A stretch of 64,000 nucleotides of DNA from Blastocatellia bacterium (GCA_963728545.1 CAVSKO010000002.1:358874-422873); one strand, 5' to 3'. Shown: positions 2,220-17,931, counted from the stretch's first letter. Numbers and translations: made by a program. The notes: generated by a model not told the origin, from the letters alone.

Positions 2220-4392
2220 TTATTTGTTCATCGCGCCCAGCTGTTTAAATAAAAAAGCGTAAGTGTCGGCTTCCCGCTCGTTGCGCTGTTTTTGCGTCTC
2301 GCCACTACCGTGTCCTGCGTCGTAATCGATCCGTAGCAAAACGGGTTTGCTACTCGCCGAAGCCGCTTGCAATCGCGCCGCCATTTTCGCCGACATCCAG
2401 GGGGCAACGCGCGGGTCGTTGATGCCGTGCGTCAAAAGGACTGCCGGATATTTTACGCCGTCTTTGATCTTCAAATAACCATCCATCGCCAGCAGTGCTC
2501 TGAAACCTTCTTCGGTTTCGACCGAGCCGAATTCGGGGATATTTATAGCGCCGCTTGCGGTTGTTTCGCCGCGCAAAACATTGATGTAACCGACATTGAT
2601 AATCGCCGCGCCGAACAATTCGGGCCGTTCAGCAATCGCGTTGCTGATTAAAATACCACCTGCGCTTACACCTTGAATCCCCAGGTGTTCGGGCGAGGTG
2701 TATTTTTCCGCAATCAAATACTCGGCGCAGGCTATAAAGTCTTTCCAGGTGTTCGGCTTTGTCTTCCCTTTTCCCGCCAGATACCATTCTTTACCGTATT
2801 CGCCGCCGCCGCGAACGCCCGTTAAAACATACACGCCGCCGCGCTCTAGCCAGGGCAAAGCATTAGCAAAGAAGTCCGGCGAAGTGTTTTCATAGCCATA
2901 TGCGCCATACCCGTCCATCAAAACAGGATTTGAGCCGTCGCGCTTCAAGCCTCTTTTGTAGATGATAACGAGCGGGACCATAATGCCATCGTAGGATTTT
3001 GCTTTGGCGTTGACGGTCTCGATATGCGACATATCAATCGGAATCGGCGGAACGAGTTTGGTATCCGTTGAATTTCCGGTTTTCGGGTCGTATTTGAAAT
3101 GAGCAGTTGATTTTGTGAACGATAGGGTGCGGAAATAGATGCCGTCTGTATTTGTTTCGGTTGGCGTAATTCGAGCCGAGCCGCCGTAAGGCAGCCTGAT
3201 CAACTCCGCTTTCATCGTTTTGTAATCAACGCGCCAAATTCTTCTCATGCCGCCGTCGAGCGTCTGCACATACATTGCATCGCGTTGCGCTCTGCCTGCT
3301 TCGACTATGGCTTCGCCGCCGGAAAAGAAGGTTTCATCCTTGGTTAAATACTGTTGTTTGAGATTCGCGCGAACGATCTTATAACGCGGCGTATTTTTAT
3401 AAGTCGTCAAATACAGATCGTCGCCGCGCATATTCAACCCCGTAACTTCATCCTCAAAACCGACGATTTTGCGCCAGGGCACGGGCTTCTGGTTTAAAGC
3501 TTGGAGCTGAGTAGCATAAATTTCGATGTTCGGCGGCACACCCGAGTTGACATAAGTAAAAACGTATTTCCAATTCGGATCGGTATCAGGGAACGTCAGC
3601 AGTTTTTGGTCTAAACTGATATTCGGATTTACGTCATAACCGAAAACGGGTTTATCCGTATCGGGGTTCGTTCCCAAAACATGGAGATAAACACGGAGTT
3701 TTTGATATTTTTCAGTTTCCGGCGCGCCTTCGGGAAGTTTTTGCAGGCGATTGTAGAGAAAAGATTTTCCGTCAGGCAGCCATTCGCCTTCGCTGAAATT
3801 CGCCCGGTTCGATCCGCTCGCCCATATCTTTTCCGGTAGCGGTTTCAACGACGCGAATCTCGCCGACTTCCGAACCACCCGCGTAAATGAGATAAGAAAC
3901 GTATTTGCCGTCCCAGGAAATATTCCAACCGCCGAGCGAGTAACGCTTGCCGCCGTCGATTACTTTCGTCGGGTCAATTAAAAGGCGCTCCGCGCTCGTC
4001 AGACCTTCGCGGACATAAAGTTTATTGTCCGGCTCGCCCGGATTGCGCTTCAAATAAAAATAAAGATTGCCAAGCGGACGAACGCCGCTGATATTTACGC
4101 TCGCGCCGCTCAATCCGTTGAGTCGCTCTAAGATTTCGCCGCGCATCGGCATTTTATCAAGATAAGCGCGACTGTAATCGGCTTGCGATTTTATCCATCT
4201 CTGCGTTTCGCCCGCCTTCAAATCTTCCAGCCAACGATACGGGTCTGTGATTTTCTGGCCGAAATACTCGTCGCTTACATTACGCACTTCGGCTTTCGCC
4301 GGCGCGTTTTGCGCGAGAGTAGATGCAATAGATATTGAGACTAGCAAACAAGCGGCAAGATTTGTGGCGAAGAGGTATCGAAACGGTTGCAT
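2220..4392 (-). pseudogene. prolyl oligopeptidase family serine peptidase (S9A), split by an apparent frameshift (ORF fragments 3772..4392 and 2220..3878 overlap in different frames)
   Basis: N-terminal fragment has signal peptide + beta-propeller start (DPYRWLED); C-terminal fragment has S9 catalytic GVSAGG serine motif and DxxGHG; combined ~720 aa = normal POP length. Confidence 0.6.
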
Positions 4393-4409: not shown

Positions 4410-6843
4410 TCACTCATACCTCAACGCCACCATTGGATCCACTCTTGTAGCTCGGCGCGCGGGAAAGATGGTTGCGACCATCGCCGCCGCTGCCAGGACA
4501 AGCGACACCAGCGCGAAGGTCGTAAGATCGGTCGTCCCCACGTCAAAAAGAAGGCCCGACATTATGCTTGATAACACCACGGACAAGGCCACTGCTCCTG
4601 CGAATCCTATGACCAGGCCGATTCCGGTCAGCAGCATGCTTTGGCCTACAACCATCTTCAGTATGTCCAATGATTGCGCGCCGAGCGCCATCCTTATGCC
4701 TATCTCGTGCGTTCGCTGCGTGACTGAATAGGCGATAACGCCGTAGATGCCGACGACGGCTAAGACGAGCGCGACGGAAGCGAAGATGACAAGCAGCAGC
4801 ATGTTGAAACGCTGCCGCGATATTGATTCGGAAAGCACATCCTCCATCGTGCTGATCTCGGCGATGGGCTGTTCAGGGTCTATAGCGCGCACTTCGGCTT
4901 GCGCTGCCGACGCCAACGATCCCGGATCGGTGTGTGTGTGCAGCACAAAATTCATGAAAGCGTAAGGCTCACGCGCATGCGGCCAATAAATGGTCGGTTT
5001 TACTTCAAGGTTCAATCCCATATCGCGAATGTCGCCGACTACGCCCACGATCTCATCCGGCTCGTCGCTGTCCCAGCTTATTACAACGCGCTTGCCGAGC
5101 GGGTCTTCATTAGGCCAGTAGAGCCGCGCCATCGTTTCGTTTATCAAAAGCACTCTCTGGCTCTTCGCCGTATCTCGCTCGTCGAGCATTCGGCCCTTAA
5201 TCAAAGGTATCGCCATCGCGTCAAAATAGCTCGGCGTCACCACTCTCACGTCTGTAACGGGCTGTTCGCCGGGCGGGGGCTCGGGGCGATCTGTGATAGT
5301 GAAACCGGTGGCGGATCGCTGGCCCGCCAGTTGCAAAAAGTTTATCGCGCCTACGGACTCGACCCCTGGCAAGACGCGGAGCCTGTCTTCCAACTGCTTG
5401 AAGAAGGCTATGCGTTGCGCTTCCTGACTATATTTTGATCCCGGGAGCTGGAGTTTCAGAGTCAAAATATTTTCAGTCCTGAAACCGGGCTGTACATTTT
5501 GAAGCCGCATGAAGCTTTTGATCATCAATCCCGCGCCGATCAAAAGCACGAGCGACAAGGCCACTTCGGCTATGACGAAAAGATTCCGAACCATGCGGCT
5601 GCTGCCCGCAACCCTGGTCCCGCGCCCGCCTTCCTTGAGCGTCGCGTTGAGATCGGGCTTCGATGCTTGAAGCGCCGGCACCAGGCCAAAGATTATCCCT
5701 GTTAAAAACGATATGATGAGCGTAAACACAAGCACGCTCCAATCGATTGCGATTTCGTTAAGCCGAGGTATGTTATCAGGGCTGACGGCTACGAGAAGTT
5801 TCAACCCCCAGTAAGCGAGCAACAGCCCGAGCGCGCCGCCGAAAGTTGAAAGAAGCACGCTTTCAACCATCAACTGGTAGATGATTCTTGACCGCGCTGC
5901 GCCGAGGGCTGTCCTGAGCGCCAACTCTTTTTGCCTTGTCGCAGCGCGAGCAAGCAAAAGGTTGGCGACGTTCGCGCAGGCTATCAACAAAACGAAACCT
6001 ACCGCACCGAGCAATAACAGTATGATCGGCCTTATGTCTCCCACGATCTGTTCGTGGAGCGGAACCAGGTTCACATTCCATCCGGCATTAAATTTCAGAT
6101 TGGTCTGCTCTAATTGAGCCGCTATGCCTTCCATCTCTGCCTGGGCCTGGTCGCGGGTCACACCCGGCTTTAGCCTGGCGACGCTCAGCAGGAATCGGCC
6201 CGATGTCGCTCGATAATCAACGGCGGGGTCTAAGGCCAACGGGAGCCATATTTCCGTCTCCCGGTTCATGAAAATAAAAATCGGCGGGCATGACGCCGAC
6301 GACCGTATAACTCCTGCCGTTCAGCGTCACCGATTGGCTGAGTATTTCGTCGCGGCCTCCGAACAACTGTTGCCAGAGGCGATGGCTCAGAATCACGACC
6401 AGTTCATTTCCGGGCCGTCCTTCTTCTTCAGTAAAGGTGCGCCCGCGCAAGGCCTGAACTCCAAGCACGTTGAAAAAGCTGACAGTCACAATCTGAGCGT
6501 CGAGCACTCTAGGCTCACCCTGGCCCGTCAGGTTTCGCTGGCTGTTGGTGGTGAGCGCAGCCATCGGATCGAGCGTCTGGGTTTGTCGCGTCCAGTCTAA
6601 ATAATTAGCGGGAGAGACGACATTGGTAGCGCGATTTCGCGGAATGTTTCTCTCCCAAACCATAACCAGCCTGTCAGGGTCCGTGTAGGGGAGAGGGCGA
6701 AGAAGGACGCCGTTGACGACACTGAAGATGGCTGTGGTTGCTCCGATGCCTAGCGCAAGCGCGATTATCGCAACCGCCGTAAATCCTGGTTGCTTCCTAA
6801 GCACGCGCAAACCGTAACGAATATCTTGCAGAACTTTATCCAT
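4410..6843 (-). pseudogene. MacB-like / FtsX-family ABC transporter permease (Acidobacterial duplicated orphan permease type), split by apparent frameshift near 6220-6300
   Basis: Fragment 6217..6843 is ~65% identical to N-terminus of intact paralog 10716..13142 (MDxxLQDxRY...GFTxxAxLALALGIxAxxAIFSVVN); fragment 4410..6269 matches the remainder incl. two FtsX 4-TM modules; 53-nt out-of-frame overlap. Confidence 0.6.
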
Positions 6844-6870: not shown

Positions 6871-8082
6871 TTAATTTTTAGACCGCTGCCGTCTCCGAGG
6901 CGCGTCATCCTGTGTGTTCGGATCGGCTTCGATCTTTATATTCATATCCGCCGCTCGGCGGTCGCGCATCAAAATCATTCCCAGCGCCCAGGTTGCCTGT
7001 TTTCGCACGTGATTATTCTCATCCTTAGTCGCCGCGCTCAAAGCTTCGACGGCGCGGTAATCGCCTTTAAGACCTAACGCCCATGCCGCCTGCGAGCGCA
7101 CATGGCCGTCGGAATCTTTCAAAGCCGCCGTCAAAGTTTCTACGGCCCGGCTATCGCCCTTGAGTCCGAGCGCCCACGCTGCTTGCGACCGCACGTGCGC
7201 GTCTTGATCTTTAAGAGCCTCCATCAAAGGCTCGACCGCCTCACGGTCCCCCTTAAGCCCCAGCGCCCATGCCGCTTGCGAGCGCACATGGCCGTCGGAG
7301 TCTTTCAAAGCAAAGGTCAGTGGTTCCACAGCACGGCTATCGCCTTTTAGCCCTAACGCCCATGCTGCTTGCGAACGAACGTGATTGTCAGAATCTTTCA
7401 AAGCTACTATCAGTGGCTCTACGGAATCTCTGTTGCCTACAAGCCCCGAGGCCCACGCCGCTTGTGAGCGCACTTGCGGTTCCGAATCTTTGAGCGCTGT
7501 AATGAGAGGCTCAACCGCTCGCGAGTCGTGCTTCAAGCCCAGGCCCCATGCGGCTTGCGCGCGAACTTGCCAGGCAGAATCGCTTATCGCAGCAATCAAC
7601 GGCTCAACCGAGCGGTCATCTTTTACCAGCCCCAGCCCGAATGCAGCGTTCTTTCGCGCATACATCTCCTGGGTCTTTAATGCCTGGATGAGCGGGTCAA
7701 CCGCAAGAGGCCCAATCCTTGAAAGGGCGATAGCAGCTTCCTTGCCCACCGTGTCATCATCGTCAAAATGCGTGCTGTTACCTCTCCCACCGCAATCAAG
7801 CACTCTTACCTTCGTCTCATCGCCAAGCAGCCGAACCAGATGCGATATTGCGGGCGCGGCCCGCTCTCGCATCTGTCCAAGCGAGCAGGCGGCAGTAGCA
7901 CGCTCGACGGCGTTGCTGGATTTCAACGCTTCGATCAGCCTGTTCAGGTCAGAAGATGAAATATTCGACTCCTGCTGAGAAAACGTCGTCGTAGTTGCGC
8001 CTGACCCTGCTACGCGAGTCTGCGCGGTTGCGCCAAAAAGGCAGCAAAAGAGCATTGCTATCATTGCCAATCTTTTCATCAT
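6871..8082 (-). CDS. secreted HEAT-repeat (PBS-lyase HEAT-like) protein
   Basis: Signal peptide MMKRLAMIAMLFCCLFGATAQ; ~8 tandem 31-aa repeats VRSQAAWALGLKGDSRAVEPLxxALKD; acidic then Arg-rich C-terminal tail. Confidence 0.75.
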   Translation of the reverse strand: MMKRLAMIAMLFCCLFGATAQTRVAGSGATTTTFSQQESNISSSDLNRLIEALKSSNAVERATAACSLGQMRERAAPAISHLVRLLGDETKVRVLDCGGRGNSTHFDDDDTVGKEAAIALSRIGPLAVDPLIQALKTQEMYARKNAAFGLGLVKDDRSVEPLIAAISDSAWQVRAQAAWGLGLKHDSRAVEPLITALKDSEPQVRSQAAWASGLVGNRDSVEPLIVALKDSDNHVRSQAAWALGLKGDSRAVEPLTFALKDSDGHVRSQAAWALGLKGDREAVEPLMEALKDQDAHVRSQAAWALGLKGDSRAVETLTAALKDSDGHVRSQAAWALGLKGDYRAVEALSAATKDENNHVRKQATWALGMILMRDRRAADMNIKIEADPNTQDDAPRRRQRSKN

Positions 8083-8123
8083 AATCTCCTTTGACTCAGT
8101 TATGATCAGAGAGACTCATCGCT

Positions 8124-10172
8124 CTACAAGTCGCGGCTTGCGCGAGCGCGTCTGCGCGGCCTGGCGGGCCTTGGGTTCGGATTCTTGTCTTCATCCGGGT
8201 TGACCTCGACATCGATGTTGTCGGGTTCTATTTCTATATCTTGAGGCTCCTCATTCCCGTCGGTCTTCGTTTTGGTATCGAGATTTACGTTGATCCTCAT
8301 GGGCCGAGAGTTTACCAAGAGCATTCCGAGCGCCCACGCTGCGTTCTGTCGTACGTGAGGATGTTCGTCTTTCATCGCAGCGTTCAAAGGTTCTACAGCC
8401 CTCTGGCTGCCTCTCATTCCGAGCGACCATGCGGCCTGCGCCCTCACGTTCGCGTTCTCGTCTTTGAGGGCAGCTATCAAAGCGTCAACGGCGCGGCTAT
8501 CGCCTTTCATTCCGAGCGCCCACGCGGCCTGTGATCGAACTCTATGGTGTTCATCCTTCAGAGCGGCCATCAGCGGTTCTACGGCGCGGTGATCTCCCTG
8601 CATGCCGAGCGCCCATGCGGCCTCGGCCCTCACGCCTGCATCCTTATCATTGAGCGCGGCCGCTAACAAATCTGTAACGCTCTGGCCGCCTTTCATTCCG
8701 AGCGCCCATGCCGCCTGTTTTCGCACCTGCTCGTCGCCGTCTTTCAGCGCATCGATCAAAGCCTGGACAGCTCCGCTCGTTGTCTGCTCAGAAGATTTTT
8801 CCTCTTGTTGCTGCGGCTCTGCCGGTTCTACTGGATCTGCTTGATCTTCCTTTGAAGTCTCTTCGTCTTGCGGTTCGGGTTCAGATTGCTGTAGCTGTTC
8901 TTCCGTTTCCGATTCGGCTGTGTGAAACGATGGCGTCATCGTTTGAGTTTCAAATCGAGGATCGTTCTGCTTGAGCTGTGTCCCGATCAATTCAAGACTC
9001 TTTGATTCAGGCGGCGGCGAAGCCTTTGTCTGCGCCGTCGGGCGGAGGCTTGCGAGCGGAAGAATGATCAAGGCAAGGGAAAGAACCACGAGTGACGAAC
9101 CGATTCGGTTCAATCCTCTTCGGTTCAAGCTAGGGTCGAGGATAGCCAGCAGTCGCCCTTCGAGTTGCGACCGGCGCGCCATTGCTACCGCCGTTAAAGA
9201 TGAGCAGCTCCCCGATCTGAGCGAGCGCGCGGTTTCAAGCAGCAGGTCTGCGTAATCCGACGCCCTGGTGCCCGTTCCTAAGACTTGATCGTCGCAGGCC
9301 AACTCGCGCTCCATTCGCAAGCGGCGCGCGGCCATCCACACAAGCGGGTTGAACCAGTAAAGCGCGCAAGCCGTTTGAGCCATTGTCTGCGTCAAACAAT
9401 CTTTGCGTTTGACGTGAGCCAGCTCGTGCATCAATACGACGAAACGGCGTTCGCGCGGCCAGTTGTCAGCATCCGCGGGCAAAAGGATCGCGGGCCGTAG
9501 CGTGCCCCAGGTCTGCGGCATCGCTATCCTTGGGCTTTTAAGCAATGAAACTCGCCTGAGCAAACCTAGCTGGCGGCTTATGTCGAATGAGAGATCGGTC
9601 CAGGCCGGGTCAGTAATTTCATGCGCTTTGCGAGAGAGTAACCATACGGCTGCGATGCCGAATAAAAACCGCCCGAGCGAAATAAAGACCCCCGCGAGCC
9701 AGATTATTAAAATCCATTGACCCCAATTAACGGCTTCGTTTGATGCCACAGCAGATGATTCGTAATCTTTGGAAGCTTGCCCGTGTGAAGCAGGGACAGC
9801 CTGTGCTTCAAAAGCAAGTTTCGCATCCATTGCCGGGCGGGCGGGCTGCGCCTCACGCTTGGCCTTGTCCGTTCGAACAATCGCGGCGCTCCTTGTCGAC
9901 TCATCTGATTTAAGCATTGAAAATGATTCGGGCAAAATAGAGACGCGCCACGACGGGAGCCCATAAGTTAAAACCGGCAGCGCGAGCAGTCCCAAAAGCG
10001 ACAGGCTCCACAAAAGATGACGAGTCGCAGCCGACGCGCGCCGCAATATAGTGTTTAACGCGAGGGTGGCTAGAAGTATCGCCGTAGCTTTCAGCGCGAT
10101 GTCTAAAATAAAGAGCGTCGTCTGGTCTTCAATGGGCGAAAGCTGCAAGATTTCAAATGCCGTGTAGATCAT
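8124..10172 (-). CDS. BlaR1/MecR1-like M56 metalloprotease signal transducer fused to C-terminal HEAT-repeat domain
   Basis: N-terminal TM helices; M56 zinc motif HELAHVKRKD and downstream FNPLVWM; TM helix then acidic/Gln-rich linker, ~6 HEAT repeats (same repeat type as 6871..8082) and Pro/Arg-rich tail; start overlaps stop of BlaI-family gene. Confidence 0.75.
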   Translation of the reverse strand: MIYTAFEILQLSPIEDQTTLFILDIALKATAILLATLALNTILRRASAATRHLLWSLSLLGLLALPVLTYGLPSWRVSILPESFSMLKSDESTRSAAIVRTDKAKREAQPARPAMDAKLAFEAQAVPASHGQASKDYESSAVASNEAVNWGQWILIIWLAGVFISLGRFLFGIAAVWLLSRKAHEITDPAWTDLSFDISRQLGLLRRVSLLKSPRIAMPQTWGTLRPAILLPADADNWPRERRFVVLMHELAHVKRKDCLTQTMAQTACALYWFNPLVWMAARRLRMERELACDDQVLGTGTRASDYADLLLETARSLRSGSCSSLTAVAMARRSQLEGRLLAILDPSLNRRGLNRIGSSLVVLSLALIILPLASLRPTAQTKASPPPESKSLELIGTQLKQNDPRFETQTMTPSFHTAESETEEQLQQSEPEPQDEETSKEDQADPVEPAEPQQQEEKSSEQTTSGAVQALIDALKDGDEQVRKQAAWALGMKGGQSVTDLLAAALNDKDAGVRAEAAWALGMQGDHRAVEPLMAALKDEHHRVRSQAAWALGMKGDSRAVDALIAALKDENANVRAQAAWSLGMRGSQRAVEPLNAAMKDEHPHVRQNAAWALGMLLVNSRPMRINVNLDTKTKTDGNEEPQDIEIEPDNIDVEVNPDEDKNPNPRPARPRRRARASRDL

Positions 10173-10561
10173 TAGCGCCCCTCCTTTCTCGCCTCTTCTA
10201 TCAGCTTGGAAAGCCTGTCCAGGTCCGAAGCCGATAACTTGGACCGCGACATGTCAAGGAGCGTCGCCACCGCGTCTTCTGTCGAGTCGTCAAAAAACGT
10301 CTGTAGCATCTGCTTTAGCGCAGACTGCCTGGCTTTCTCGCGCGACACCGTAGGCAAGTAGACATATCGCAACCCGTCCATCTGGTGCTTCAACAATCCC
10401 TTTTCTTCAAGCAACCGCAGCATCGCCCGCACAGCCGAATAACTGGGCGGGTTTGGCAGGTCCTCCATCACATCGACCGCCGTAGCCTGCGCGCGCTTGT
10501 AAACGATGTCCATAATCTGACGCTCACGGCGGCTCAAATTCGTGTGCATCTGCTTTGTCAT
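10172..10561 (-). CDS. BlaI/MecI/CopY-family transcriptional repressor
   Basis: 129 aa; winged-helix Penicillinase_R pattern (LSRRERQIMDIVYKRAQATAVDV...SYSAVRAMLRLLEEKGLL); translationally coupled to downstream M56 transducer. Confidence 0.8.
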   Translation of the reverse strand: MTKQMHTNLSRRERQIMDIVYKRAQATAVDVMEDLPNPPSYSAVRAMLRLLEEKGLLKHQMDGLRYVYLPTVSREKARQSALKQMLQTFFDDSTEDAVATLLDMSRSKLSASDLDRLSKLIEEARKEGR

Positions 10562-10604
10562 CTGCGGCTCTCCTCTGAGAATCGAAATCGGCTTGAACTC
10601 GACG

Positions 10605-10620
10605 TGCTAATTTTTTAGCA
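10605..10620 (-). promoter_or_regulatory. candidate BlaI operator 1 (perfect palindrome tgctaa-TTTT-ttagca) overlapping putative -10 of blaI-operon promoter
   Basis: Read directly; on minus strand a TTGACT -35 and TAAAAA -10 (17-nt spacer) lie between the two palindromes. Confidence 0.4.
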
Positions 10621-10647
10621 TGTTGGATTTTTTAAGTCAACAAGAAA

Positions 10648-10665
10648 ATGCTAATTTTTTAGCAT
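10648..10665 (-). promoter_or_regulatory. candidate BlaI operator 2 (18-bp perfect palindrome atgctaattttttagcat) upstream of putative -35
   Basis: Second copy of same dyad 44 bp from first; two-dyad arrangement as in classical bla/mec operators. Confidence 0.4.
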
Positions 10666-10673
10666 CAGCTTGC

Positions 10674-10708
10674 AAAAAAATCGCTCTCGAATTCGAGAGC
10701 GATTTTTT
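10674..10708 (-). terminator. Rho-independent terminator (A-run, 11-bp perfect stem tcgctctcgaa/ttcgagagcga, T-run); bidirectional
   Basis: Perfect palindrome around GAATTC flanked by A7 and T6; immediately 3' of MacB-like permease (minus strand). Confidence 0.7.
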
Positions 10709-10715
10709 AGACCTG

Positions 10716-13142
10716 TTATTCGTACCGCAGCGCAATCATCGGGTCGACGCGGGTAGCTTTGCGCGCGGGGATATAGCTGGCGATCAAGGCCACAATCGCG
10801 AGGATCACGGCGACTCCTACAAAAGTGGCCGGGTCTATGGCCTTCACGCCATAAAGCAGGCTGGACATGAACTGCGTTACAATGAGCGCTCCGGCAAGCC
10901 CGATTGCCACGCCTATGCCGACCAGCACAAAGCCCTGCTGTATCACCATAGAAAGTATATGGCTTTGCTGTGCGCCTAACGCCATGCGTATGCCGATCTC
11001 GTGCGTCTGTTGAGCGACCGAATAGTTCATCACTCCGTAAACGCCTACAGCGGCAAGTATCAAAGCGACCGCCGCAAAAATGCCGAGCATAAGCATATTG
11101 AAGCGCGGCTGCGCGACCGAGCCGTAAACTATCTGCTCCATGTTGCGTATGTCGGCTACGGGTTGATCCGGATCGATTGAGGCGATCTCGTTCCTGACAG
11201 CGCCGACGAGGTTCGACGGGTCGCCTTCGGTTCTGACGGCCAGGAACATCTGCCTGGCAGGCGTTTGCTGATAAGGGAAGTATATAAACTCTCGACCTTG
11301 CGCGCTCAGGCCATAGTGTTTGACGTGCGCCACTACGCCGACGACTACCAGCCACGGGGCCGTCGATTGATTGCCGCCAATCTTGACTCTCTTACCGATA
11401 GGGTCTTCATTGGGCCAAAATCTTCTGGCAAAGGTTTCGTCGATTATGCAGACCATCTGAGCGCCTTGCGCGTCGTGGTCGTTGAAGACTCTGCCGGCCT
11501 TCACCTCTATGCCCATCGCCTCGAAATAGTCCGGGCTGGTAACTCGACGGTCGCATTCGAAGCTTGCGTTATCAACGCTTGCAGAAGGCTGCTCGACGGT
11601 CACGGTGCCCGATTGATAAGCGCCGCTCAGGGGAAGGTGTGACACGGTTCCTGCGGTCTTCACGCCCGGCAGCGCCCGCACGCGCTGTATGAGATTCTGA
11701 TAAAAAGGGGTGAGCTGCGCGGCGTCGGAGTACTTCGTCTGCGGGAGCCGCAGTCTGAGCGTGAGCAGATGGTCAGGTTTAAACCCCGGCTCTACTTCTT
11801 GCAGGCGAATAAAACTGCGTATCATCAGCCCCGCGCCCGTCAGCAGCATGAGAGCAAAAGCCACCTCTGCTACGACGAGCACGCTGCGAACCATACGCCC
11901 CCGCGCGCCGCCCGTAGACCCCCGGCCGCCTTCCTTGAGCGTCTCGTTCAGATCGGGTTTTGATGATTGAAAGGCGGGGACCAGTCCGAAAACGATCCCT
12001 GTCAGCATCGCTATTCCGATCGTGAATATGAGCACGCTGGCATCGATCGATACCTCGTTCAGGCGAGGGACATTATCCGGCGCAACCGCGATTAATGCTT
12101 TCAGCCCGAGATAAGCGAGCAACAACCCTATCGCACCGCTGAAGACCGCAAGCACGATGCTTTCCGTCAAGAGCTGGCGGATCAGACGCCCTCGACCTGC
12201 GCCGAGAGCGGTGCGTATGGCTATCTCTTTTTCTCTGGCGACAGCCCGCGCCAACAACAGGTTCGCGACGTTGGTGCAAGCGATCAGCAATACGAACCCC
12301 ACCGCGCCTAACAACATCCACAGCATTGGCCGCACGGTTTTTACCACGTGAGCGTGCAAGGGGACGATGTTTATGCCGAACCCGAATTTATAAAACTCAT
12401 TATCGAGATCGGCGGAAATCTGCTTCATCTCTTCTTGAGCCTGCGCGAGACTGTATTCGGGCTTTATGCGAGCGATTACGCGCATGCCGTGGTTGCCGCG
12501 ATTTTGCTGGCGAAAATCCGCCGCCATCGGCACCCATAGCTCAATGTTCCTCGGAGATTGAGCGTCGGGCGGCAGTATCCCGAAGCCGTCGGGCATCACG
12601 CCTATGACCGTGGCGTTCTGGCCTTCGAGCGAGATAGTTTGATTTATGATGCCGGGGTCGGAAGCGAAGCGACGTTTCCAAAACCCGTGACTCAGTATCA
12701 CGACCCTCTCTCCGCCGGGCCGGTCTTCGGCTTCGGTGAAGGACCGGCCTTGAGACGGTTGGACTCCGAGAGTAGGGAAGAGATTTGCGGTTACGGCTGC
12801 GCCCTGTAGCTGTTCAGGCTCTCCGACGCCCGTCAGGCTGACGCTCGGAAAACTCATCGCCGCAAAATCTTCTATCATCGTGCTGCGCTCTCTCATATCG
12901 GCAAGCTCCGGGCCTGAGACCCAGTTCTGCGGCAGGTCGGGCCCGAAATAAGTCCAGACCAGCACCAGCTTGTCGGGGCTCGCGTAAGGCAGAGGGCGCA
13001 GCAAGACGGTATTGACGACGCTAAAGATCGCGCTGTTTGCTGCAATCCCCAGCGCCAGCGCCAGCACCGCGATGATGGTGAAGCCCGGACGTCTAGCCAA
13101 CATGCGGAAAGAGTAGCGCAGGTCTTGTAGTAACGTATCCAT
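10716..13142 (-). CDS. MacB-like / FtsX-family ABC transporter permease with N-terminal MacB periplasmic domain (ADOP type), intact
   Basis: 808 aa; characteristic N-terminus [22 protein letters not shown]; two FtsX permease modules; overlaps ATPase gene stop (ATGA). Confidence 0.85.
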
Positions 13143-13843
13143 CAGGCGACCTCTACACTTTCTTCAACCACGCGCCCGTCGAACAGGTGTATCTGCCGGT
13201 CGGCGTGGCGGGCGTAGCGCGGGTCGTGCGTCACCATGCAGATGGTCGCCCCCGCGCCGTGAAGCTCTTGAAGCAGATCGATGACGGCCTCGCCGTTTGT
13301 CGAATCGAGATTGCCCGTAGGCTCGTCGGCCAGCAGTATGAGCGGGTCTCCGGCTACGGCGCGGGCTACGGCCACACGCTGCTGCTGGCCGCCCGACAAC
13401 TGGCTCGGCAGGTGTTTTGACCTGTGCGACATCCCGACCCGCTCAAGCGCATCCATCACTCGCTGCTTTCGCTCCGACGATTTCATTCCGCGATAGGTGA
13501 GCGGAAGTTCTACGTTTTCAAAGACCGTCAGGTCGCCTATTAGATTAAAGCTTTGAAATATGAATCCGACCTCGCGGTTGCGCACGCGCGCGCGCGCTGC
13601 CAGGGGGAGATCGGAAACCGGCTTGCCGTCCAGATACTGGTTGCCTTCCGTGGGAGAGTCGAGCAGCCCGAGAATCGAGAGCAGCGTAGATTTGCCGCAG
13701 CCCGACGGCCCGGCGATAGAGACGTACTCTCCTCTCTTTATTTCGAGATGAATGCCCGACAGCGCATGCGTTTCTACTTCATCGGTGAGAAAAACCTTAG
13801 TCACCCCTTCCAGGCGAATAAGCGGATGGTCAGCAGAGTTCAT
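13142..13843 (-). CDS. ABC transporter ATP-binding protein (MacB/LolD-type)
   Basis: Walker [13 protein letters not shown] signature [14 protein letters not shown], Walker [13 protein letters not shown]. Confidence 0.9.
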
Positions 13844-14165
13844 ACTTTCTTGTCCTCCGAAGATTTTTTTTCATACTTATCCCGCTTCTTTCGGTGCGCG
13901 TATGCAGTCTTAGACGTTACTACGCAGGATTCTGTTATCAAGGTGCATAATAATGAAGCACCCGATTCCTTATCTCTTAAGTAAAACTGCGCCAGTTGAA
14001 GTCCGAAGCCAAAAGGACTGCAAAAAGCGAATTTCAAATGACCGACTCCCCAACAAGCAGGCCTCAGGCTTTGGGCACTTTCTGTGAGTGGCGCGAGATA
14101 AAAAAAAGTTTCGAATTTTTTTTGCGTTAAAACGAGGGTGATCTTTAGCATGAAGATTGAAACGA

Positions 14166-14200
14166 GATGGACGCGGCTGTCGTACGGTTATCGAACTTTC
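14166..14200 (+). promoter_or_regulatory. possible ECF-type promoter (TGAAAC-N17-CGTA) upstream of ECF sigma gene
   Basis: Motif resembles sigW/ECF autoregulated promoters (AAC in -35, CGT in -10); sequence-only. Confidence 0.3.
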
Positions 14201-14355
14201 GTAGCCGTACGAAAGTCCCTTTTTTTCGAGAGACGGCACAAAAGCTGCAACCTTTTCATTGCGTCCGCCACTTACTGGTCGAAACGAGGATGAAGTGGCA
14301 AATGCTGGAAGCAATTAGCCTGGTGGGCCAGCCGAGCGGACGCGCCGGGGCTCTG

Positions 14356-14922
14356 ATGAACAGTTCAGAAGAACTCATTTCGCGCGCCCGCCGTGGCGAT
14401 GATGAAGCCTTCCGCCTGATCTTCGAGCGGTACGGCAGACCCATCATCAGCTTCATCTACGACATGGTGGGTCAGCGAGACCTGGCCGAAGAGTTGACGC
14501 AGGAGACTTTTGTGCGCGCTTACAAAAACATCGGCGGTCTGAGAGATGAGACGAAGCTGTTAACCTGGCTGTTCGGCATAGCCAAGAACGTGGCGCGCGA
14601 GTTGATACGCGCCCGCTATAAAGATGACGGCAAAGTCGGCATAGATGATGACCGCGTGATGGAATTGAGCGATAATAATCTTCTGCCCGAAGACGTGCTT
14701 TTGAACAAAGAGCTGAACGGAGTGATTCAAACCGCGCTCGGGGCGCTCGATGAAGATAAGCGATTGGTCTTTTCGCTCAAAGTGTTTCAGCAGCGGAGCT
14801 ACGAAGAGATTGCGGAGATAACCGGCTTTTCTATTCCAAAGCTCAAGACCGATCTGCATCGCGCGAGGACGGAGATGCGCCGCCGCATCCGTCCATATTT
14901 GGGAGCTAGCAATGAAGTGTGA
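14356..14922 (+). CDS. RNA polymerase sigma-70 factor, ECF subfamily (ORF track start 14167 probably over-extended)
   Basis: Region 2 (FRLIFERYGRPIISFIYDMVGQRDLAEELTQETFVRAYKNI) and region 4 HTH (SYEEIAEITGFSIPKLKTDLHRAR); 3' end overlaps anti-sigma start. Confidence 0.8.
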   Translation: MNSSEELISRARRGDDEAFRLIFERYGRPIISFIYDMVGQRDLAEELTQETFVRAYKNIGGLRDETKLLTWLFGIAKNVARELIRARYKDDGKVGIDDDRVMELSDNNLLPEDVLLNKELNGVIQTALGALDEDKRLVFSLKVFQQRSYEEIAEITGFSIPKLKTDLHRARTEMRRRIRPYLGASNEV

Positions 14923-15772
14923 AGATTATCTTCCTATGATCGAAAGTTATGTTGACGGCGAGCTTGACGGCACAACCGCTCAACGCATCCGGACGCACCT
15001 TACCACGTGCGACTCTTGCCAGGATTTCGTGGCGGAGTTGAGGCAGGAGCAAGAGGTGTACGCGCTTTACAACCGCGAGGTAGACATAACGCCCGCGATG
15101 TGGGCCGCTGTCCAGGCGAGGATTGAAAAAGCGAAGCCCGCCCGCTCCTCAAGCGTTTTTGAGGGCGTGAGCAATTGGCTTCGAGGGTTGGTCGGAACGC
15201 CGCGCTTAAGCCCTGCTCTCGCGGCCGCGCTAATCATAATGACCGTCGGCACAACCGTAGTCGTAATGAAGTACCTGAATTCACCCGATAAACCCGAAGT
15301 TCAGCAGATGGCCGACGCGCGCGAGCCGAAAACAAGCGAAGAGAAGAAAGTTGTACAACCGCAAACCGGAGAGTCGCAGCCGCCAATCGTGGCAGAGACG
15401 AATCCGGTGGTGAAGCCTCCCACAGGCGGTAAGCCTGATGAAGAGATCAAAGTGCCCGGGCGTCAAAGAAACGCCGTAAAGCAACCCGCTGTCAAGCCTC
15501 AGCCTACGCCGGAGCAGCTTGTGCGCGAAGCCGAACAGAAATACTTGAGCGCGATTGCGATTCTTGAAAAAGACTTTGATCGCAACAAGTCTAAGCTTGA
15601 CCCTGCGATTGTCGTGCGATTCGAAAAGGCAATGGTAGACATCGACAACACGATTGCCGAAACTCGGCGGGCCGTGCGCGAGAATCCTGATGACCCGATA
15701 GCATTGCAATACATGCTCTCGGCTTATGCAAAGAAAGTTGACGTGCTCAGAGAGATGGCAAGAAGTAATTAA
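14912..15772 (+). CDS. anti-sigma factor, zinc-finger (zf-HC2) type with one TM helix
   Basis: N-terminal HxxxCxxC-like motif (RTHLTTCDSCQDF), central hydrophobic helix, overlap with sigma gene. Confidence 0.7.
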   Translation: MKCEDYLPMIESYVDGELDGTTAQRIRTHLTTCDSCQDFVAELRQEQEVYALYNREVDITPAMWAAVQARIEKAKPARSSSVFEGVSNWLRGLVGTPRLSPALAAALIIMTVGTTVVVMKYLNSPDKPEVQQMADAREPKTSEEKKVVQPQTGESQPPIVAETNPVVKPPTGGKPDEEIKVPGRQRNAVKQPAVKPQPTPEQLVREAEQKYLSAIAILEKDFDRNKSKLDPAIVVRFEKAMVDIDNTIAETRRAVRENPDDPIALQYMLSAYAKKVDVLREMARSN

Positions 15773-15847
15773 CGAGTCACTCCCTGTTCAGACAGAGATA
15801 ATTCTAAGGATGTGCGTCAGGCATAAATTGAGCCTGAGTTCATAGTA

Positions 15848-17026
15848 ATGTTTATGAAAAGAAGAACGCTAATAATTTTAATACTCCTCGTCTTCGCATC
15901 GAGCGTGGCAGGCATTGGCGAGAGGGCCGATGCCTCGATCATGCCCGGCGGAGGGCAGAAAGAAAAAGAGAAGCCTACGACAAAGGTTACTCCGAAAGTG
16001 GCGCCGAAGGTGACCATTAAGCCGGACGTGAATGTTGACCCGCAGGTTGCCTCGACCGCACCAGATCAACCGAGTCAGGTGTCGGTCAAGTTAGATCGCG
16101 GGGGCAAGGTCGTCGTCGTAAACCGAAGCGGCGAAACCCGCATTACCGGATGGGACAGCGATATGATCGAAGCCCGCGCCGTAGGCGAGGAAGGGCCGGA
16201 GGCTGTGCAGGTCCGAGTGTCCGGCGAAGGCGCTCGCTCTCGCGTTGTTTTATCTGTGCCAGCTTACAATTCGCGGCGTCATAGCAGCGAGATCAGCCTA
16301 GAGATCAAGCTGCCGCGTTACGCGGACCTCGAATCGATCGAGAGCCAGCGCGGCGATATTGACATCACGGGTCTTGACGGCACCGTTGCGGTCTCGACCG
16401 CGCACGGTTCGCTTACGATCAAGAATGTCGGCTCGCTCAAGGCCGCGACTCGCAACGGCGAGGTCACGGTCGCAGGCGTCAAAGGTGATGCATCTATCAG
16501 GAGCTTGAACGGCGATCTGACTATAGACAACGTCTCCGGCTCGGTCGATCTGGCGGCGACAAATGGGAACGTCATAGCTCGCGGCACAGGAGGCAACATC
16601 CAGGTCAACTCGGCTTCGGGCGACATCGATCTGCATTGCGTAAAAGGTAATGCGACGGTGAATACTGCAAGCGGGGCGATCATGCTGGTCGGCGTCGGCG
16701 GAAATATAGAAGCCAACACCGCGAGCGGCGATGTGATCTTCAAAGGCGCTATGCGCGCAAGCGGCAGTTACAGATTAAAGTCGATTTCAGGGGCTGTAGA
16801 GATGGCCGTTCAGCCCGACCCTCCGGGTTTCACCGCGACGCTGATTACCTATAGCGGCGAGATCGAAACAGATTTTCCGCTGACCGTCAACGCGCCGCTC
16901 ACGGGACCTATCAACCGGCGCATAGTCGGCGTGTACAAAGACGGCCAGACACAGATAACGCTCGATTCCTTTAGCGGGACCGTTAGCATAGTTAAAGCGA
17001 CAGGTCCCCCGACGGGGTGCAAATAG
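15848..17026 (+). CDS. DUF4097 (putative adhesin / LiaG-like beta-helix repeat) protein, secreted
   Basis: Signal peptide; repeated motifs GxVxVxxVxGDAxIxSLNGDLTIDNVSGSVDLAATNGNV. Confidence 0.7.
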   Translation: MFMKRRTLIILILLVFASSVAGIGERADASIMPGGGQKEKEKPTTKVTPKVAPKVTIKPDVNVDPQVASTAPDQPSQVSVKLDRGGKVVVVNRSGETRITGWDSDMIEARAVGEEGPEAVQVRVSGEGARSRVVLSVPAYNSRRHSSEISLEIKLPRYADLESIESQRGDIDITGLDGTVAVSTAHGSLTIKNVGSLKAATRNGEVTVAGVKGDASIRSLNGDLTIDNVSGSVDLAATNGNVIARGTGGNIQVNSASGDIDLHCVKGNATVNTASGAIMLVGVGGNIEANTASGDVIFKGAMRASGSYRLKSISGAVEMAVQPDPPGFTATLITYSGEIETDFPLTVNAPLTGPINRRIVGVYKDGQTQITLDSFSGTVSIVKATGPPTGCK

Positions 17027-17093
17027 TTTTTCAACTTAGAATGTTCAACGGCTCGAAGCGGCACATTCCGCAACAAATTTGGAGAGGTGAAAA

Positions 17094-17915
17094 ATGAGAA
17101 CAAAAATCAACAAGCTGATCGGTATCATGCTAACAGCAATCTTCGTGTTGGCAGTTGCTTATCAACCTTCTGTGGCATCTGCTCAAAGAGACGACGATGA
17201 TTCGCGAAGCGATTTGCCGGAGCGCGAAGAGATCCGCCAGAGCTATGAGCTTTCGTCCGGCGCAACCGTGATAGTCGAAGGCATCAACGGCACCGTAGAT
17301 ATTGAGACGACAAACGGACAGACCGCTGAGGTTCACATAGTTCGTTCTGCGGCGACGAAGGATGATTTGAATTATCACAAAATATTGATCGAGCACTCGG
17401 GCAGCCGTCTCGTGGTTCGGGGCGAAAACGACCGCGAGCGCGACCGCGCCTCGCGAGGCCGCAAAGTCCGTCACCGCGTAACGATGAAGATTCCGCGCAG
17501 AGTCGATCTGACGACGAGCGGCGTCAACGGTCGTGTCAATATCGGCGAAGTTGACGGCCCCGTCAAAGTCAGCGGCATCAATGGCCGCGTCAACGTCGGG
17601 CAGGCCATAGGCTACATGGAGATTTCAGGGATAAACGGCGCGGTGACGGTAACCATTGCGCAGCTCAGCCAGCGCGGCATTGAGGTGAGCGGCATCAACG
17701 GTCGCGTGGAGCTGCGCTTCACCGAAGACATCAACGCCGACCTGGAGGTGACGGGCATTAACGGAAGCGTCCAGGCCGATATGCCCAACGTGACCATCTT
17801 TGGCAAGATAAGTCGCGATAATTTCCGCGCGCGAATAGGGTCGGGCGGGACGCCGATACAGATGTCAGGCATTAACGGCGGCGTGCGCATAGCTCGCGCT
17901 TCGAGCGCAGGCTAA
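17094..17915 (+). CDS. DUF4097 repeat protein, secreted
   Basis: Signal peptide; repeats SGINGRVNVG / SGINGAVTVT. Confidence 0.7.
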   Translation: MRTKINKLIGIMLTAIFVLAVAYQPSVASAQRDDDDSRSDLPEREEIRQSYELSSGATVIVEGINGTVDIETTNGQTAEVHIVRSAATKDDLNYHKILIEHSGSRLVVRGENDRERDRASRGRKVRHRVTMKIPRRVDLTTSGVNGRVNIGEVDGPVKVSGINGRVNVGQAIGYMEISGINGAVTVTIAQLSQRGIEVSGINGRVELRFTEDINADLEVTGINGSVQADMPNVTIFGKISRDNFRARIGSGGTPIQMSGINGGVRIARASSAG

Positions 17916-17931
17916 ACGCATTCACTTTCAG

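Follow-up and report, generated by a model that had tools for sequence, protein, structure and literature searches.

A probable BlaI/M56-type switch with a predicted periplasmic HEAT-repeat sensor and a secreted HEAT paralogue in a Blastocatellia bacterium

Switches of the BlaR1-BlaI type, which pair a membrane-embedded M56 metalloprotease with a winged-helix repressor, are textbook antibiotic sensors, yet most members of the family sense something else. Activated BlaR1 reportedly cleaves BlaI directly, a result attributed to Alexander et al. 2023 (structures 8exp-8ext). The operator half-sites of the BlaI/MecI/CopY family are TACA/TGTA. M56 proteins number about 15,000 in 254 architectures, with a penicillin-binding protein (PBP) domain in only about 6% (PMC13492132; C. 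difficile CenIR, J Bacteriol 2026). For 96% of them, a BlaI-like repressor is encoded no more than five genes away, non-PBP C-terminal domains are found in the majority of BlaR-like proteins, and HEAT does not appear among the listed architectures with at least 100 InterPro entries (PMC13492132). Non-canonical BlaIR systems include C. difficile CenIR (PMC13492132), BlaIR of M. tuberculosis and M. abscessus, and P. aeruginosa PvmSR (10.64898/2026.08.03.742534), the mycobacterial and P. aeruginosa systems being sensor-less. Here we describe a BlaI/M56 locus in a 64,000-nt stretch of a Blastocatellia bacterium (the window, in whose numbering all coordinates are given). The locus consists of a BlaI homologue, an M56 protease with a C-terminal domain built of HEAT repeats (M56-HEAT), and a separately encoded, secreted HEAT-repeat protein (free HEAT).

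The module lies on the minus strand in the order blaI, M56-HEAT, free HEAT and a split permease of the ADOP (acidobacterial duplicated orphan permease) family, as determined by open reading frame (ORF) listing and profile searches. All ORFs that a first-pass annotation of this DNA had placed here are present on that strand, and the matches to Peptidase_M56, Penicillinase_R and HEAT_2 that it had proposed to look for were all obtained. The blaI gene (10172..10561) encodes a 129-aa winged-helix repressor of the BlaI/MecI/CopY family (Penicillinase_R, 6e-29) that covers positions 1-115 of the 115 in PF03965, with 101 bits against a cutoff of 22.6. It matches the BlaI/MecI structures 1p6r, 1sd6 and 1okr in the PDB and has the winged helix and C-terminal dimerisation helices of the family. 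The motif AALLD(L/M)S is conserved in the C-terminal helix of the BlaI homologues and aligns with the cleavage site of MecI, N101|F102. The stop codon of blaI and the ATG of the M56 gene share one base (TAATG), with AAGGAGG upstream. The proposed coupling of a BlaI-family repressor to an M56 gene is thus borne out by both the profile match and the 1-nt overlap, and the locus falls under BlaIR in the broad sense, an M56 membrane protease gene beside a BlaI-family repressor gene.

The M56-HEAT protein (8124..10172, 682 aa) combines a Peptidase_M56 domain (1e-41, residues 21-344; 143 bits against a cutoff of 31) with HEAT_2 matches (6e-37, 126 bits). Its M56 core (aa 1-376, 9045..10172) contains four transmembrane (TM) segments and a gluzincin domain predicted to be cytoplasmic. 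The catalytic motifs, H249ELAH253 and E288/E290..D294/D295, are intact, and the core aligns with residues 107-307 of S. aureus BlaR1 (PDB 8exs) in such a way that HELAH corresponds to HEYAH, ERELACDD to NEVEAD, and AVAMARRSQLEGRL to the region with the autocleavage loop. Little or no variation is seen in HELAH, ExE..DD and the stretch opposite the autocleavage loop when 24 or 106 homologues are aligned, and the catalytic motifs do not vary at all among the 106, as expected of the regulated-proteolysis pair that had been proposed.

In the position of the C-terminal penicillin-binding domain of BlaR1, M56-HEAT carries an acidic, Gln-rich linker, predicted to be disordered and periplasmic (aa 377-457, 8802..9044), five 31-aa HEAT repeats of the PBS-lyase/alphaRep type (aa 458-621, 8310..8801), each with VRxxAAWALGM, and a disordered tail that is first acidic and then Arg/Pro-rich (8127..8309, ..NPNPRPARPRRRARASRDL). 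The sensor domain seen in the first-pass annotation is therefore a HEAT domain indeed, with five canonical 31-aa repeats instead of about six. An AlphaFold2 (AF2) model built with 106 sequences gave predicted local distance difference test (pLDDT) values above 90 for the TM and protease parts, with TM helices that agree with hydropathy, and above 95 for residues 458-621, which form ten helices, that is, five repeats of a tandem two-helix solenoid. Disorder is predicted for the linker (residues 390-461, pLDDT below 50) and for the tail (634-640 and 648-682, below 50; residues 631-650 average about 50-51). A Foldseek search with the N-terminal part of the model retrieved the BlaR1 cryo-EM structures 8exs, 8ext and 8exq (E about 1e-4), and the HEAT part retrieved alphaRep structures with 54-57% identity over about 152 aligned columns and a root-mean-square deviation of 0.6-0.9 A. 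We considered and rejected the idea that the Arg-rich tail docks in cis on the Trp-lined HEAT surface, as the AF2 monomer leaves the tail disordered.

The predicted topology of M56-HEAT is BlaR1-like, with a cytoplasmic protease and a periplasmic HEAT domain. Hydropathy places TM1 at residues 20-43, TM2 at 53-71, TM3 at 148-172 and TM4 at 357-375, and the loops follow the positive-inside rule: the basic loop RRASAATRH lies on the same side of the membrane as the protease domain, which is basic too, whereas the opposite side has the N-terminus and the C-terminal part, both acidic, together with the loop of residues 72-147. The periplasmic placement also fits with the domain order, which is that of BlaR1, and with the existence of a paralogue that bears a signal peptide as well as two conserved cysteines. 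The extracytoplasmic HEAT domain postulated earlier is thus supported by prediction.

The arrangement is widely conserved. A homologue search yielded 1875 matches, and nearly all of the best 120 carry PF05569 together with HEAT Pfam domains; many of these 120, from Blastocatellia and Longimicrobiales, are already annotated as 'M56 family metallopeptidase' or 'HEAT repeat protein/beta-lactamase regulating signal transducer'. Counted as database clusters, proteins with this M56+HEAT architecture number more than 100 and come from Acidobacteriota and Gemmatimonadota. We fetched 80 genome loci with the family alignment and labelled their ORFs by phmmer (related loci are given L-numbers below). M56 and BlaI genes are adjacent in essentially all of these 80 loci. 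About 31 of the M56 genes encode HEAT repeats, almost all with blaI directly upstream, and in about 23 of the 31 a free HEAT gene also follows directly downstream on the same strand, the exceptions being mostly contig ends or longer fusions; across the 80 loci, free HEAT was never seen downstream of M56 genes with other C-terminal domains. The M56 and free HEAT genes overlap by 1-4 nt in three loci (L009, L016, L037), and a metagenome scan with the free-HEAT alignment added 12 more BlaI/M56-HEAT/HEAT loci. The same scan turned up three loci, L096, L097 and L100, in which the M56 core is fused to a module of the free-HEAT type that includes the Cys pair and is 72% identical to the free HEAT protein of the window. 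Two close relatives (77% and 57% identity) retain the gene order of the window, including a divergent extracytoplasmic function (ECF) sigma cluster, and in one of them the second ADOP permease is intact. From these comparisons, BlaI, M56-HEAT and free HEAT form a conserved three-gene module, which makes up the entire operon in many loci, and free HEAT holds up as a genuine partner that keeps its position across genome and metagenome loci.

Within the same M56 clade, other proteins carry Toastrack plus HEAT_2 (L020:328-3165), Toastrack alone (L023:4017-6158) or a SecDF P1-head domain (L054:9947-14311 and L059:9950-13027). Periplasmic input domains are therefore swapped modularly.

The free HEAT protein (6871..8082, minus strand, 403 aa; HEAT_2 4e-59, 198 bits) has a signal-peptide-like N-terminus followed by an N-terminal Cys module and eight regular 31-aa repeats, and it ends in a tail that is acidic at first and Arg-rich thereafter; by eye, two or three degenerate repeats can be added to the regular eight. 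Cys66 and Cys97 are invariant in 14 orthologues, a pair consistent with an exported protein. The repeat units share 65% amino-acid and 62% nucleotide identity and use the same codon in 45% of identical residues, so that the repeats are old, and the repeated surface (H-VRSQ-AAW-ALGLKG) is kept by selection and not by recent amplification. The C-terminal 130 residues cluster by type across genomes, those of M56-HEAT with M56-HEAT and those of free HEAT with free HEAT, L034 and L039 being the exceptions. We therefore rejected ongoing gene conversion between free HEAT and the HEAT domain of the sensor, on the grounds of this clustering together with the 62% nucleotide identity and 45% codon sharing among repeat units. 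The tails of the two proteins do share a clade-specific character: in Blastocatellia both are acidic and then Arg-rich, and in seven Gemmatimonadaceae loci both proteins end in GPWPWPxPRPRPFP. The free HEAT protein had been read as a free-standing duplicate of the sensor module; the paralogy and the conserved partnership stand, whereas a recent or incidental copy is not what we see, since by sequence comparison it is an old paralogue of the HEAT domain in the sensor and a predicted direct target of BlaI.

The operon copy is thus one paralogue of a lineage-wide periplasmic HEAT family. Most other members of the free-HEAT family stand alone, in a conserved proC-HEAT-purN-purM context; in full, the commonest paralogue context of the Cys-pair family runs thiolase, RDD protein, proC (P5C reductase), HEAT, purN, purM (L120, L098, L103, L137, L155, L158, L159 and others). 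In five Vicinamibacteria-type loci (L004, L006, L007, L008, L021), two free HEAT genes lie between M56-HEAT and ADOP. The first encodes a protein that is membrane-anchored at its N-terminus and has a tail rich in His, Pro and Asn (HPHPNPNP...), and a perfect operator dyad of its own precedes the gene. In L083-L085, contigs of Blastocatellia/Pyrinomonadaceae, free-HEAT orthologues with the same Cys pair are located directly upstream of a sigma/anti-sigma/Toastrack cluster.

The region upstream of blaI contains two identical 16-bp palindromes, TGCTAAAAAATTAGCA, one proximal (10605..10620) and one distal (10649..10664), with centres 44 bp apart; these are the sole such sites in the window. Along the minus strand, the intergenic region comprises the stop codon of an upstream ADOP gene, a hairpin, the distal dyad, TTGACT, a 17-nt spacer, the proximal dyad, a ribosome-binding site (RBS) and the start of blaI. 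The distal dyad, which is kept in related loci, lies just upstream of the candidate -35 hexamer TTGACT (10635..10640), and the left arm of the proximal dyad provides TGn-TAAAAA, a candidate extended -10 element (10612-10620) that this dyad overlaps. From these elements, 17 nt apart, we infer the blaI promoter; TTGACA or TTGACT is found at the equivalent position in most related loci.

In 65 of 79 loci, the 175 bp that precede blaI contain TGCT-N8-AGCA with at most one mismatch, usually in two copies, compared with a background of 0.10 per 175 bp, and it is present in both HEAT-type (24/30) and other M56 loci (41/49). Perfect TGCTA-N6-TAGCA sites are confined to the same kind of position: in 1.87 Mb of fetched loci there are 81, of which 76 are at blaI starts and the remaining five precede the first free-HEAT gene of Vicinamibacteria-type loci by 15-29 bp. 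The sequence, usually in two copies beside TTGACA, is common to BlaI/M56 pairs whatever their sensor domain, and among L003-L082 it occurs in Acidobacteriota, Gemmatimonadota, Verrucomicrobiota, Planctomycetota, Latescibacterota and others. Since the perfect sites are found only at the starts of blaI or free HEAT genes, TGCTA-N6-TAGCA is predicted to be the generic operator of this BlaI clade, with free HEAT genes as direct targets; the two dyads would thus give blaI an operator at its own promoter, as is typical of the BlaI family. The palindromes pointed out in the first-pass annotation are accordingly conserved across related loci and site-specific. As many paralogous BlaI/M56 systems have this operator in common, cross-talk is possible.

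Between the blaI promoter and the preceding genes lies a terminator-like perfect hairpin (10675..10708; 17-nt arms, 100% complementary, with A/T runs on either side). The hairpin is retained in the L002 orthologue with both arms altered, from GCTCTCGAA/TTCGAGAGC to GCCCTCGAA/TTCGAGGGC. Upstream of it, on the minus strand, are an ABC transporter ATPase of the MacB/LolD/DarD type (13142..13843; ABC_tran 2e-34, NF038007 8e-74) and an intact 808-aa permease (10716..13142), which belongs to the ADOP family by its length of about 800 aa and its duplicated MacB_PCD and FtsX domains (two of each; TIGR03434, 1043 bits against a cutoff of 622). No further operator sites were found in the window, including upstream of the ATPase gene and of the ECF cluster, even at 1-3 mismatches. 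Because the terminator hairpin ends the ATPase-ADOP pair before the blaI promoter and no operator precedes the ATPase gene, the pair is best regarded, on this sequence evidence, as a separate transcription unit, and the earlier suggestion that the switch might also control it is not upheld. A wider regulon within the window, embracing this transporter and the ECF cluster, was rejected because operator sites are lacking there.

The second ADOP gene (4410..6843, minus strand) is a different matter, since it starts only 27 bp past the stop codon of free HEAT, on the same strand and with its own RBS. It is split into ORFs 6217-6843 and 4410-6269 (TIGR03434, 245 and 790 bits for the halves) by one extra base after GATTTTTATTTT near 6270, and is otherwise 92% identical to an intact 809-aa orthologue in L002 (tblastn). 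An assembly indel is as likely here as a true pseudogene, and is plausible because a neighbouring S9 peptidase gene within 3 kb is also split. In L001 (contig_9286, a long contig of 1 Mb; 10268-13872), several ORFs stand in place of free HEAT and several in place of the ADOP gene after it, probably owing to long-read indel errors, which advises caution with frameshifts in assemblies from this lineage. Both of the flanking MacB-like permeases noted in the first pass are therefore present, the downstream one frameshifted as described, and both are specifically of the ADOP family.

An ADOP gene directly follows the module in the window and in at least ten further loci (L001, L002, L004, L006, L007, L008, L013, L077, L086, L133), among them Vicinamibacterales and one Gemmatimonadales genome; among acidobacterial loci, only about half have it. 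Other genes found after the module encode CBM9+DUF5916 proteins (several Gemmatimonadota), TMEM260-like proteins, AhpC/DsbD and CNNM, and in many loci the next gene is convergent, so that the operon ends at free HEAT. A universal downstream output gene was sought and rejected, as the next gene varies by locus or the operon ends. Besides the repressor and the sensor, the secreted HEAT protein thus appears to be the sole product regulated in essentially all loci. Large CBM9+DUF5916 proteins adjoin BlaI/M56 modules in eleven Gemmatimonadota loci (L005, L015, L019, L023, L026, L036, L048, L057, L058, L062, L078); in L023 a single-mismatch operator lies 63 bp upstream of such a gene, and in L083 a gene of this type comes after the Toastrack cluster.

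Taken together, we favour, with a probability of roughly 65%, an autoregulated BlaI/BlaR1-type regulated-proteolysis switch that takes its input through a periplasmic HEAT solenoid and has the secreted HEAT paralogue as its effector. BlaI dimers on the two dyads would block the promoter until a periplasmic cue binds to the HEAT surface, or displaces something from it. This event would be relayed via TM4 to the cytoplasmic gluzincin domain, and the activated protease would cut BlaI in the conserved C-terminal helix (AALLD|MS), a step suggested by the BlaR1/BlaI paradigm and by the alignment of AALLD(L/M)S to the MecI site. Upon derepression, more sensor, more secreted HEAT protein and more of the co-transcribed ADOP permease would be made. 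The free paralogue could then capture or buffer the ligand or partner of the sensor in the periplasm, resulting in negative feedback, and the ADOP/MacB-type permease, where present, may act on the ligand or the envelope. We read the secreted protein as an effector on account of its regulation at essentially every locus and its paralogy to the sensor domain. Of the two roles previously suggested for it, co-sensor or decoy, that of an effector or decoy fits better, as free HEAT is a predicted direct BlaI target and often the sole regulated gene besides those for sensor and repressor; a pure co-sensor fits less well.

Several observations weigh against this interpretation. For all members, cleavage of BlaI, binding to DNA and binding of a ligand are inferred by homology, and HEAT repeats are generic protein-binding scaffolds, compatible with many ligands. 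The promoter hexamers are weak, and a consensus promoter scan did not call the blaI promoter. ADOP is missing from about half of the related loci and its frame is interrupted in the window. Many free-HEAT paralogues stand alone in unrelated contexts, such as the proC-HEAT-purN-purM cluster, and the function of the family is therefore not exclusively tied to the switch. Finally, in the AF2 monomer the tails are disordered and not docked on the HEAT surface.

The proximity of the permease might be a coincidence of gene density, with the switch controlling only itself and the HEAT protein. ADOP genes are numerous, with several unlinked copies in each of L040, L052 and L056, the upstream ATPase-ADOP pair is insulated by a terminator and has no operators, and many related loci have no downstream ADOP, their operon ending at the HEAT gene. 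This is possible, though we lean against it given the 27-bp spacing on the same strand in the window and the equivalent position of ADOP in at least 10 loci, including Vicinamibacterales and one Gemmatimonadales genome. The main alternative for the secreted protein is a role as co-receptor: it might be an obligatory part of the sensor that binds the ligand and docks on the tethered HEAT domain, in the manner of a periplasmic binding protein and its partner, or it might restrain the sensor until titrated, as RseB does on RseA. The tight gene coupling and conserved order, the clade-specific tails common to both proteins and the natural fusions in L096, L097 and L100 all fit such a co-receptor, but free HEAT has its own BlaI operator in five loci, and so behaves as a regulated output, and many paralogues have no M56 partner nearby, which makes a co-receptor unlikely in our view.

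Two further possibilities concern the nature of the switch itself. M56-HEAT might be a membrane-anchored housekeeping protease or scaffold in which the HEAT domain only positions the protein, with BlaI regulated in some other way; the generic character of HEAT scaffolds and the housekeeping context of a related periplasmic HEAT protein in many genomes would agree with this. We consider it very unlikely, as the genes for repressor and protease form a tight and obligate pair across phyla, in line with the 96% of M56 proteins near a BlaI-like repressor (PMC13492132), and as both the region aligned to the autocleavage loop and the C-terminal helix of BlaI are conserved. That the locus is a mis-described canonical regulator of beta-lactam or CopY-type copper resistance is hardly credible. 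It does match the corresponding profiles at the family level (blaR1_generic, 4e-34; CopY_TcrY, 4e-15), but the scores are far below the curated cutoffs: 118 bits against 400 for blaR1_generic, over residues 120-371 only, and 56 against 122 for CopY_TcrY (TIGR02698). In profile searches, M56-HEAT had no match to the penicillin-binding (transpeptidase) domain PF00905, and ORF listing and profile searches identified neither a beta-lactamase nor a PBP gene in or around the operon, and no gene for a copper ATPase within it. Beta-lactam sensing was rejected on these grounds: in the comparison with NF000326, NF033108 and NF033109, the defining features of BlaR1, a penicillin-binding domain and a beta-lactamase or PBP2a target, are not those of this locus. 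Copper sensing of the CopY type was rejected too, as the repressor contains no cysteine (count 0) and, therefore, the Cys-rich metal-binding motif of CopY is absent.

As to the cue of the proposed HEAT-gated switch, the regular, selection-maintained repeat surface with a Trp in each repeat suggests a periodic polymer or an extended peptide, most plausibly one that derives from the envelope or acts on it. Speculatively, the neighbourhood also points to the envelope, through the ADOP/MacB-type permeases, the Toastrack/DUF4097 genes with ECF sigma/anti-sigma factors, the Toastrack-HEAT M56 protein of L020 and the CBM9+DUF5916 proteins. A broader and rather unlikely extension would be that natural HEAT solenoids of the alphaRep kind serve the Acidobacteriota and Gemmatimonadota of soil as evolvable binders for export: the M56-tethered copy would report occupancy by a periodic envelope ligand or extended peptide, the free paralogue, made in large amounts through the BlaI regulon, would sequester the same ligand as the decoy of a sensor/decoy pair with a single repeat scaffold, and the secreted family would also feed ECF-sigma/Toastrack modules.

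The remaining features of the window surround this module. Divergent from the ATPase-ADOP operon, on the plus strand at 14167-19899, are genes for an ECF sigma factor, a zf-HC2 anti-sigma factor and three signal-peptide DUF4097/Toastrack (LiaG-like) proteins. On the other side, the split gene next to the second ADOP is an S9 prolyl-oligopeptidase/oligopeptidase B-like gene (2220-4392, minus strand), divided into overlapping ORFs 3772-4392 and 2220-3878. An 841-aa M1 aminopeptidase N-like protein (59259-61784, minus strand) has C-terminal HEAT repeats of the PBS-lyase type (NblB/CpcE-like matches, residues 640-811). Two neighbouring ORFs of about 825 aa on the plus strand (20225-22708 and 22940-25411) had no NCBIfam match at 1e-5.

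A literature search on the M56-HEAT sensor, the secreted or periplasmic HEAT family and DUF4097+HEAT retrieved nothing specific. The first-pass annotation held that a HEAT-repeat BlaR1 sensor is not a characterised arrangement, which agrees with the literature; rarity is another matter, as the architecture is abundant and annotated in sequence databases and non-PBP sensors have been published (PMC13492132). The M56-HEAT switch is a genuine, well-conserved and uncharacterised subfamily of BlaI/BlaR1-type switches that is common in soil bacteria. It is less surprising than first thought because of this abundance and because the principle of sensor diversity is published, and it is richer than described, comprising a three-gene module, a sensor/effector paralogue pair with natural fusions, a specific cross-phylum operator and recurrent Toastrack/ECF links. 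The subfamily is unusually tractable, with a large well-folded sensor, a dedicated secreted paralogue as regulated product and an operator of sharp definition. Through TGCTA-N6-TAGCA, regulons could be read straight from the genomes of hard-to-culture soil phyla, and the identity of the ligand would reveal what these abundant bacteria monitor in their envelope and show a natural use of the scaffold that engineers exploit as alphaRep binders.

Compared with BlaR1-BlaI of S. aureus and B. licheniformis and with MecR1-MecI, the switch is built on the same kind of M56 gluzincin, with four TM segments, HEXXH followed by E..D, a protease loop that runs from TM3 to TM4 in the cytoplasm and a C-terminal sensor after TM4 that is extracytoplasmic (both by prediction here), and it likewise has a winged-helix BlaI-family partner with dyads at its own promoter. 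It differs in that the sensor consists of five HEAT repeats on a long disordered linker and not of a penicillin-binding domain, in the gene order (blaI, then M56), and in having as regulated product a secreted paralogue of the sensor in place of a beta-lactamase or PBP target. The operator, TGCTA/TAGCA, also differs from the TACA/TGTA half-sites of BlaI, MecI and CopY. With CenIR, mycobacterial BlaIR and PvmSR the locus shares a BlaI repressor and an M56 protease devoid of a beta-lactam-binding domain, and a presumably non-antibiotic signal; however, the sensors of those systems are short, disordered or absent, whereas here there is a large, confidently predicted fold and a secreted paralogue. 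Toastrack (DUF4097/LiaG-like) modules with ECF sigma/anti-sigma factors are co-localised with HEAT genes in the window and in L083-L085, and Toastrack and HEAT domains are fused in L020; those modules work through sigma and anti-sigma factors, in contrast to repressor proteolysis here, and their functional link to the switch is suggested by neighbourhood alone. As in sensing by BceAB-BceRS or MacB-type systems, the locus combines an envelope signalling system with the gene for a MacB/FtsX-type permease whose periplasmic domains are large, but there is no histidine kinase, and the ADOP-type permease has no adjoining ATPase gene in the operon; Bce-like, transporter-dependent sensing would be a pure analogy. 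In alphaRep libraries the AAxALG position is variable. The repeats described here are of the same 31-aa type (..VEPLIxALKDxDxxVRxxAAxALG..) as those of the alphaRep binders and of the natural PBS-lyase HEAT-like proteins MTH187, CpcE/F and YibA, but they are predicted to be periplasmic and tethered to a signalling protease, and in almost every repeat that position is a fixed Trp.

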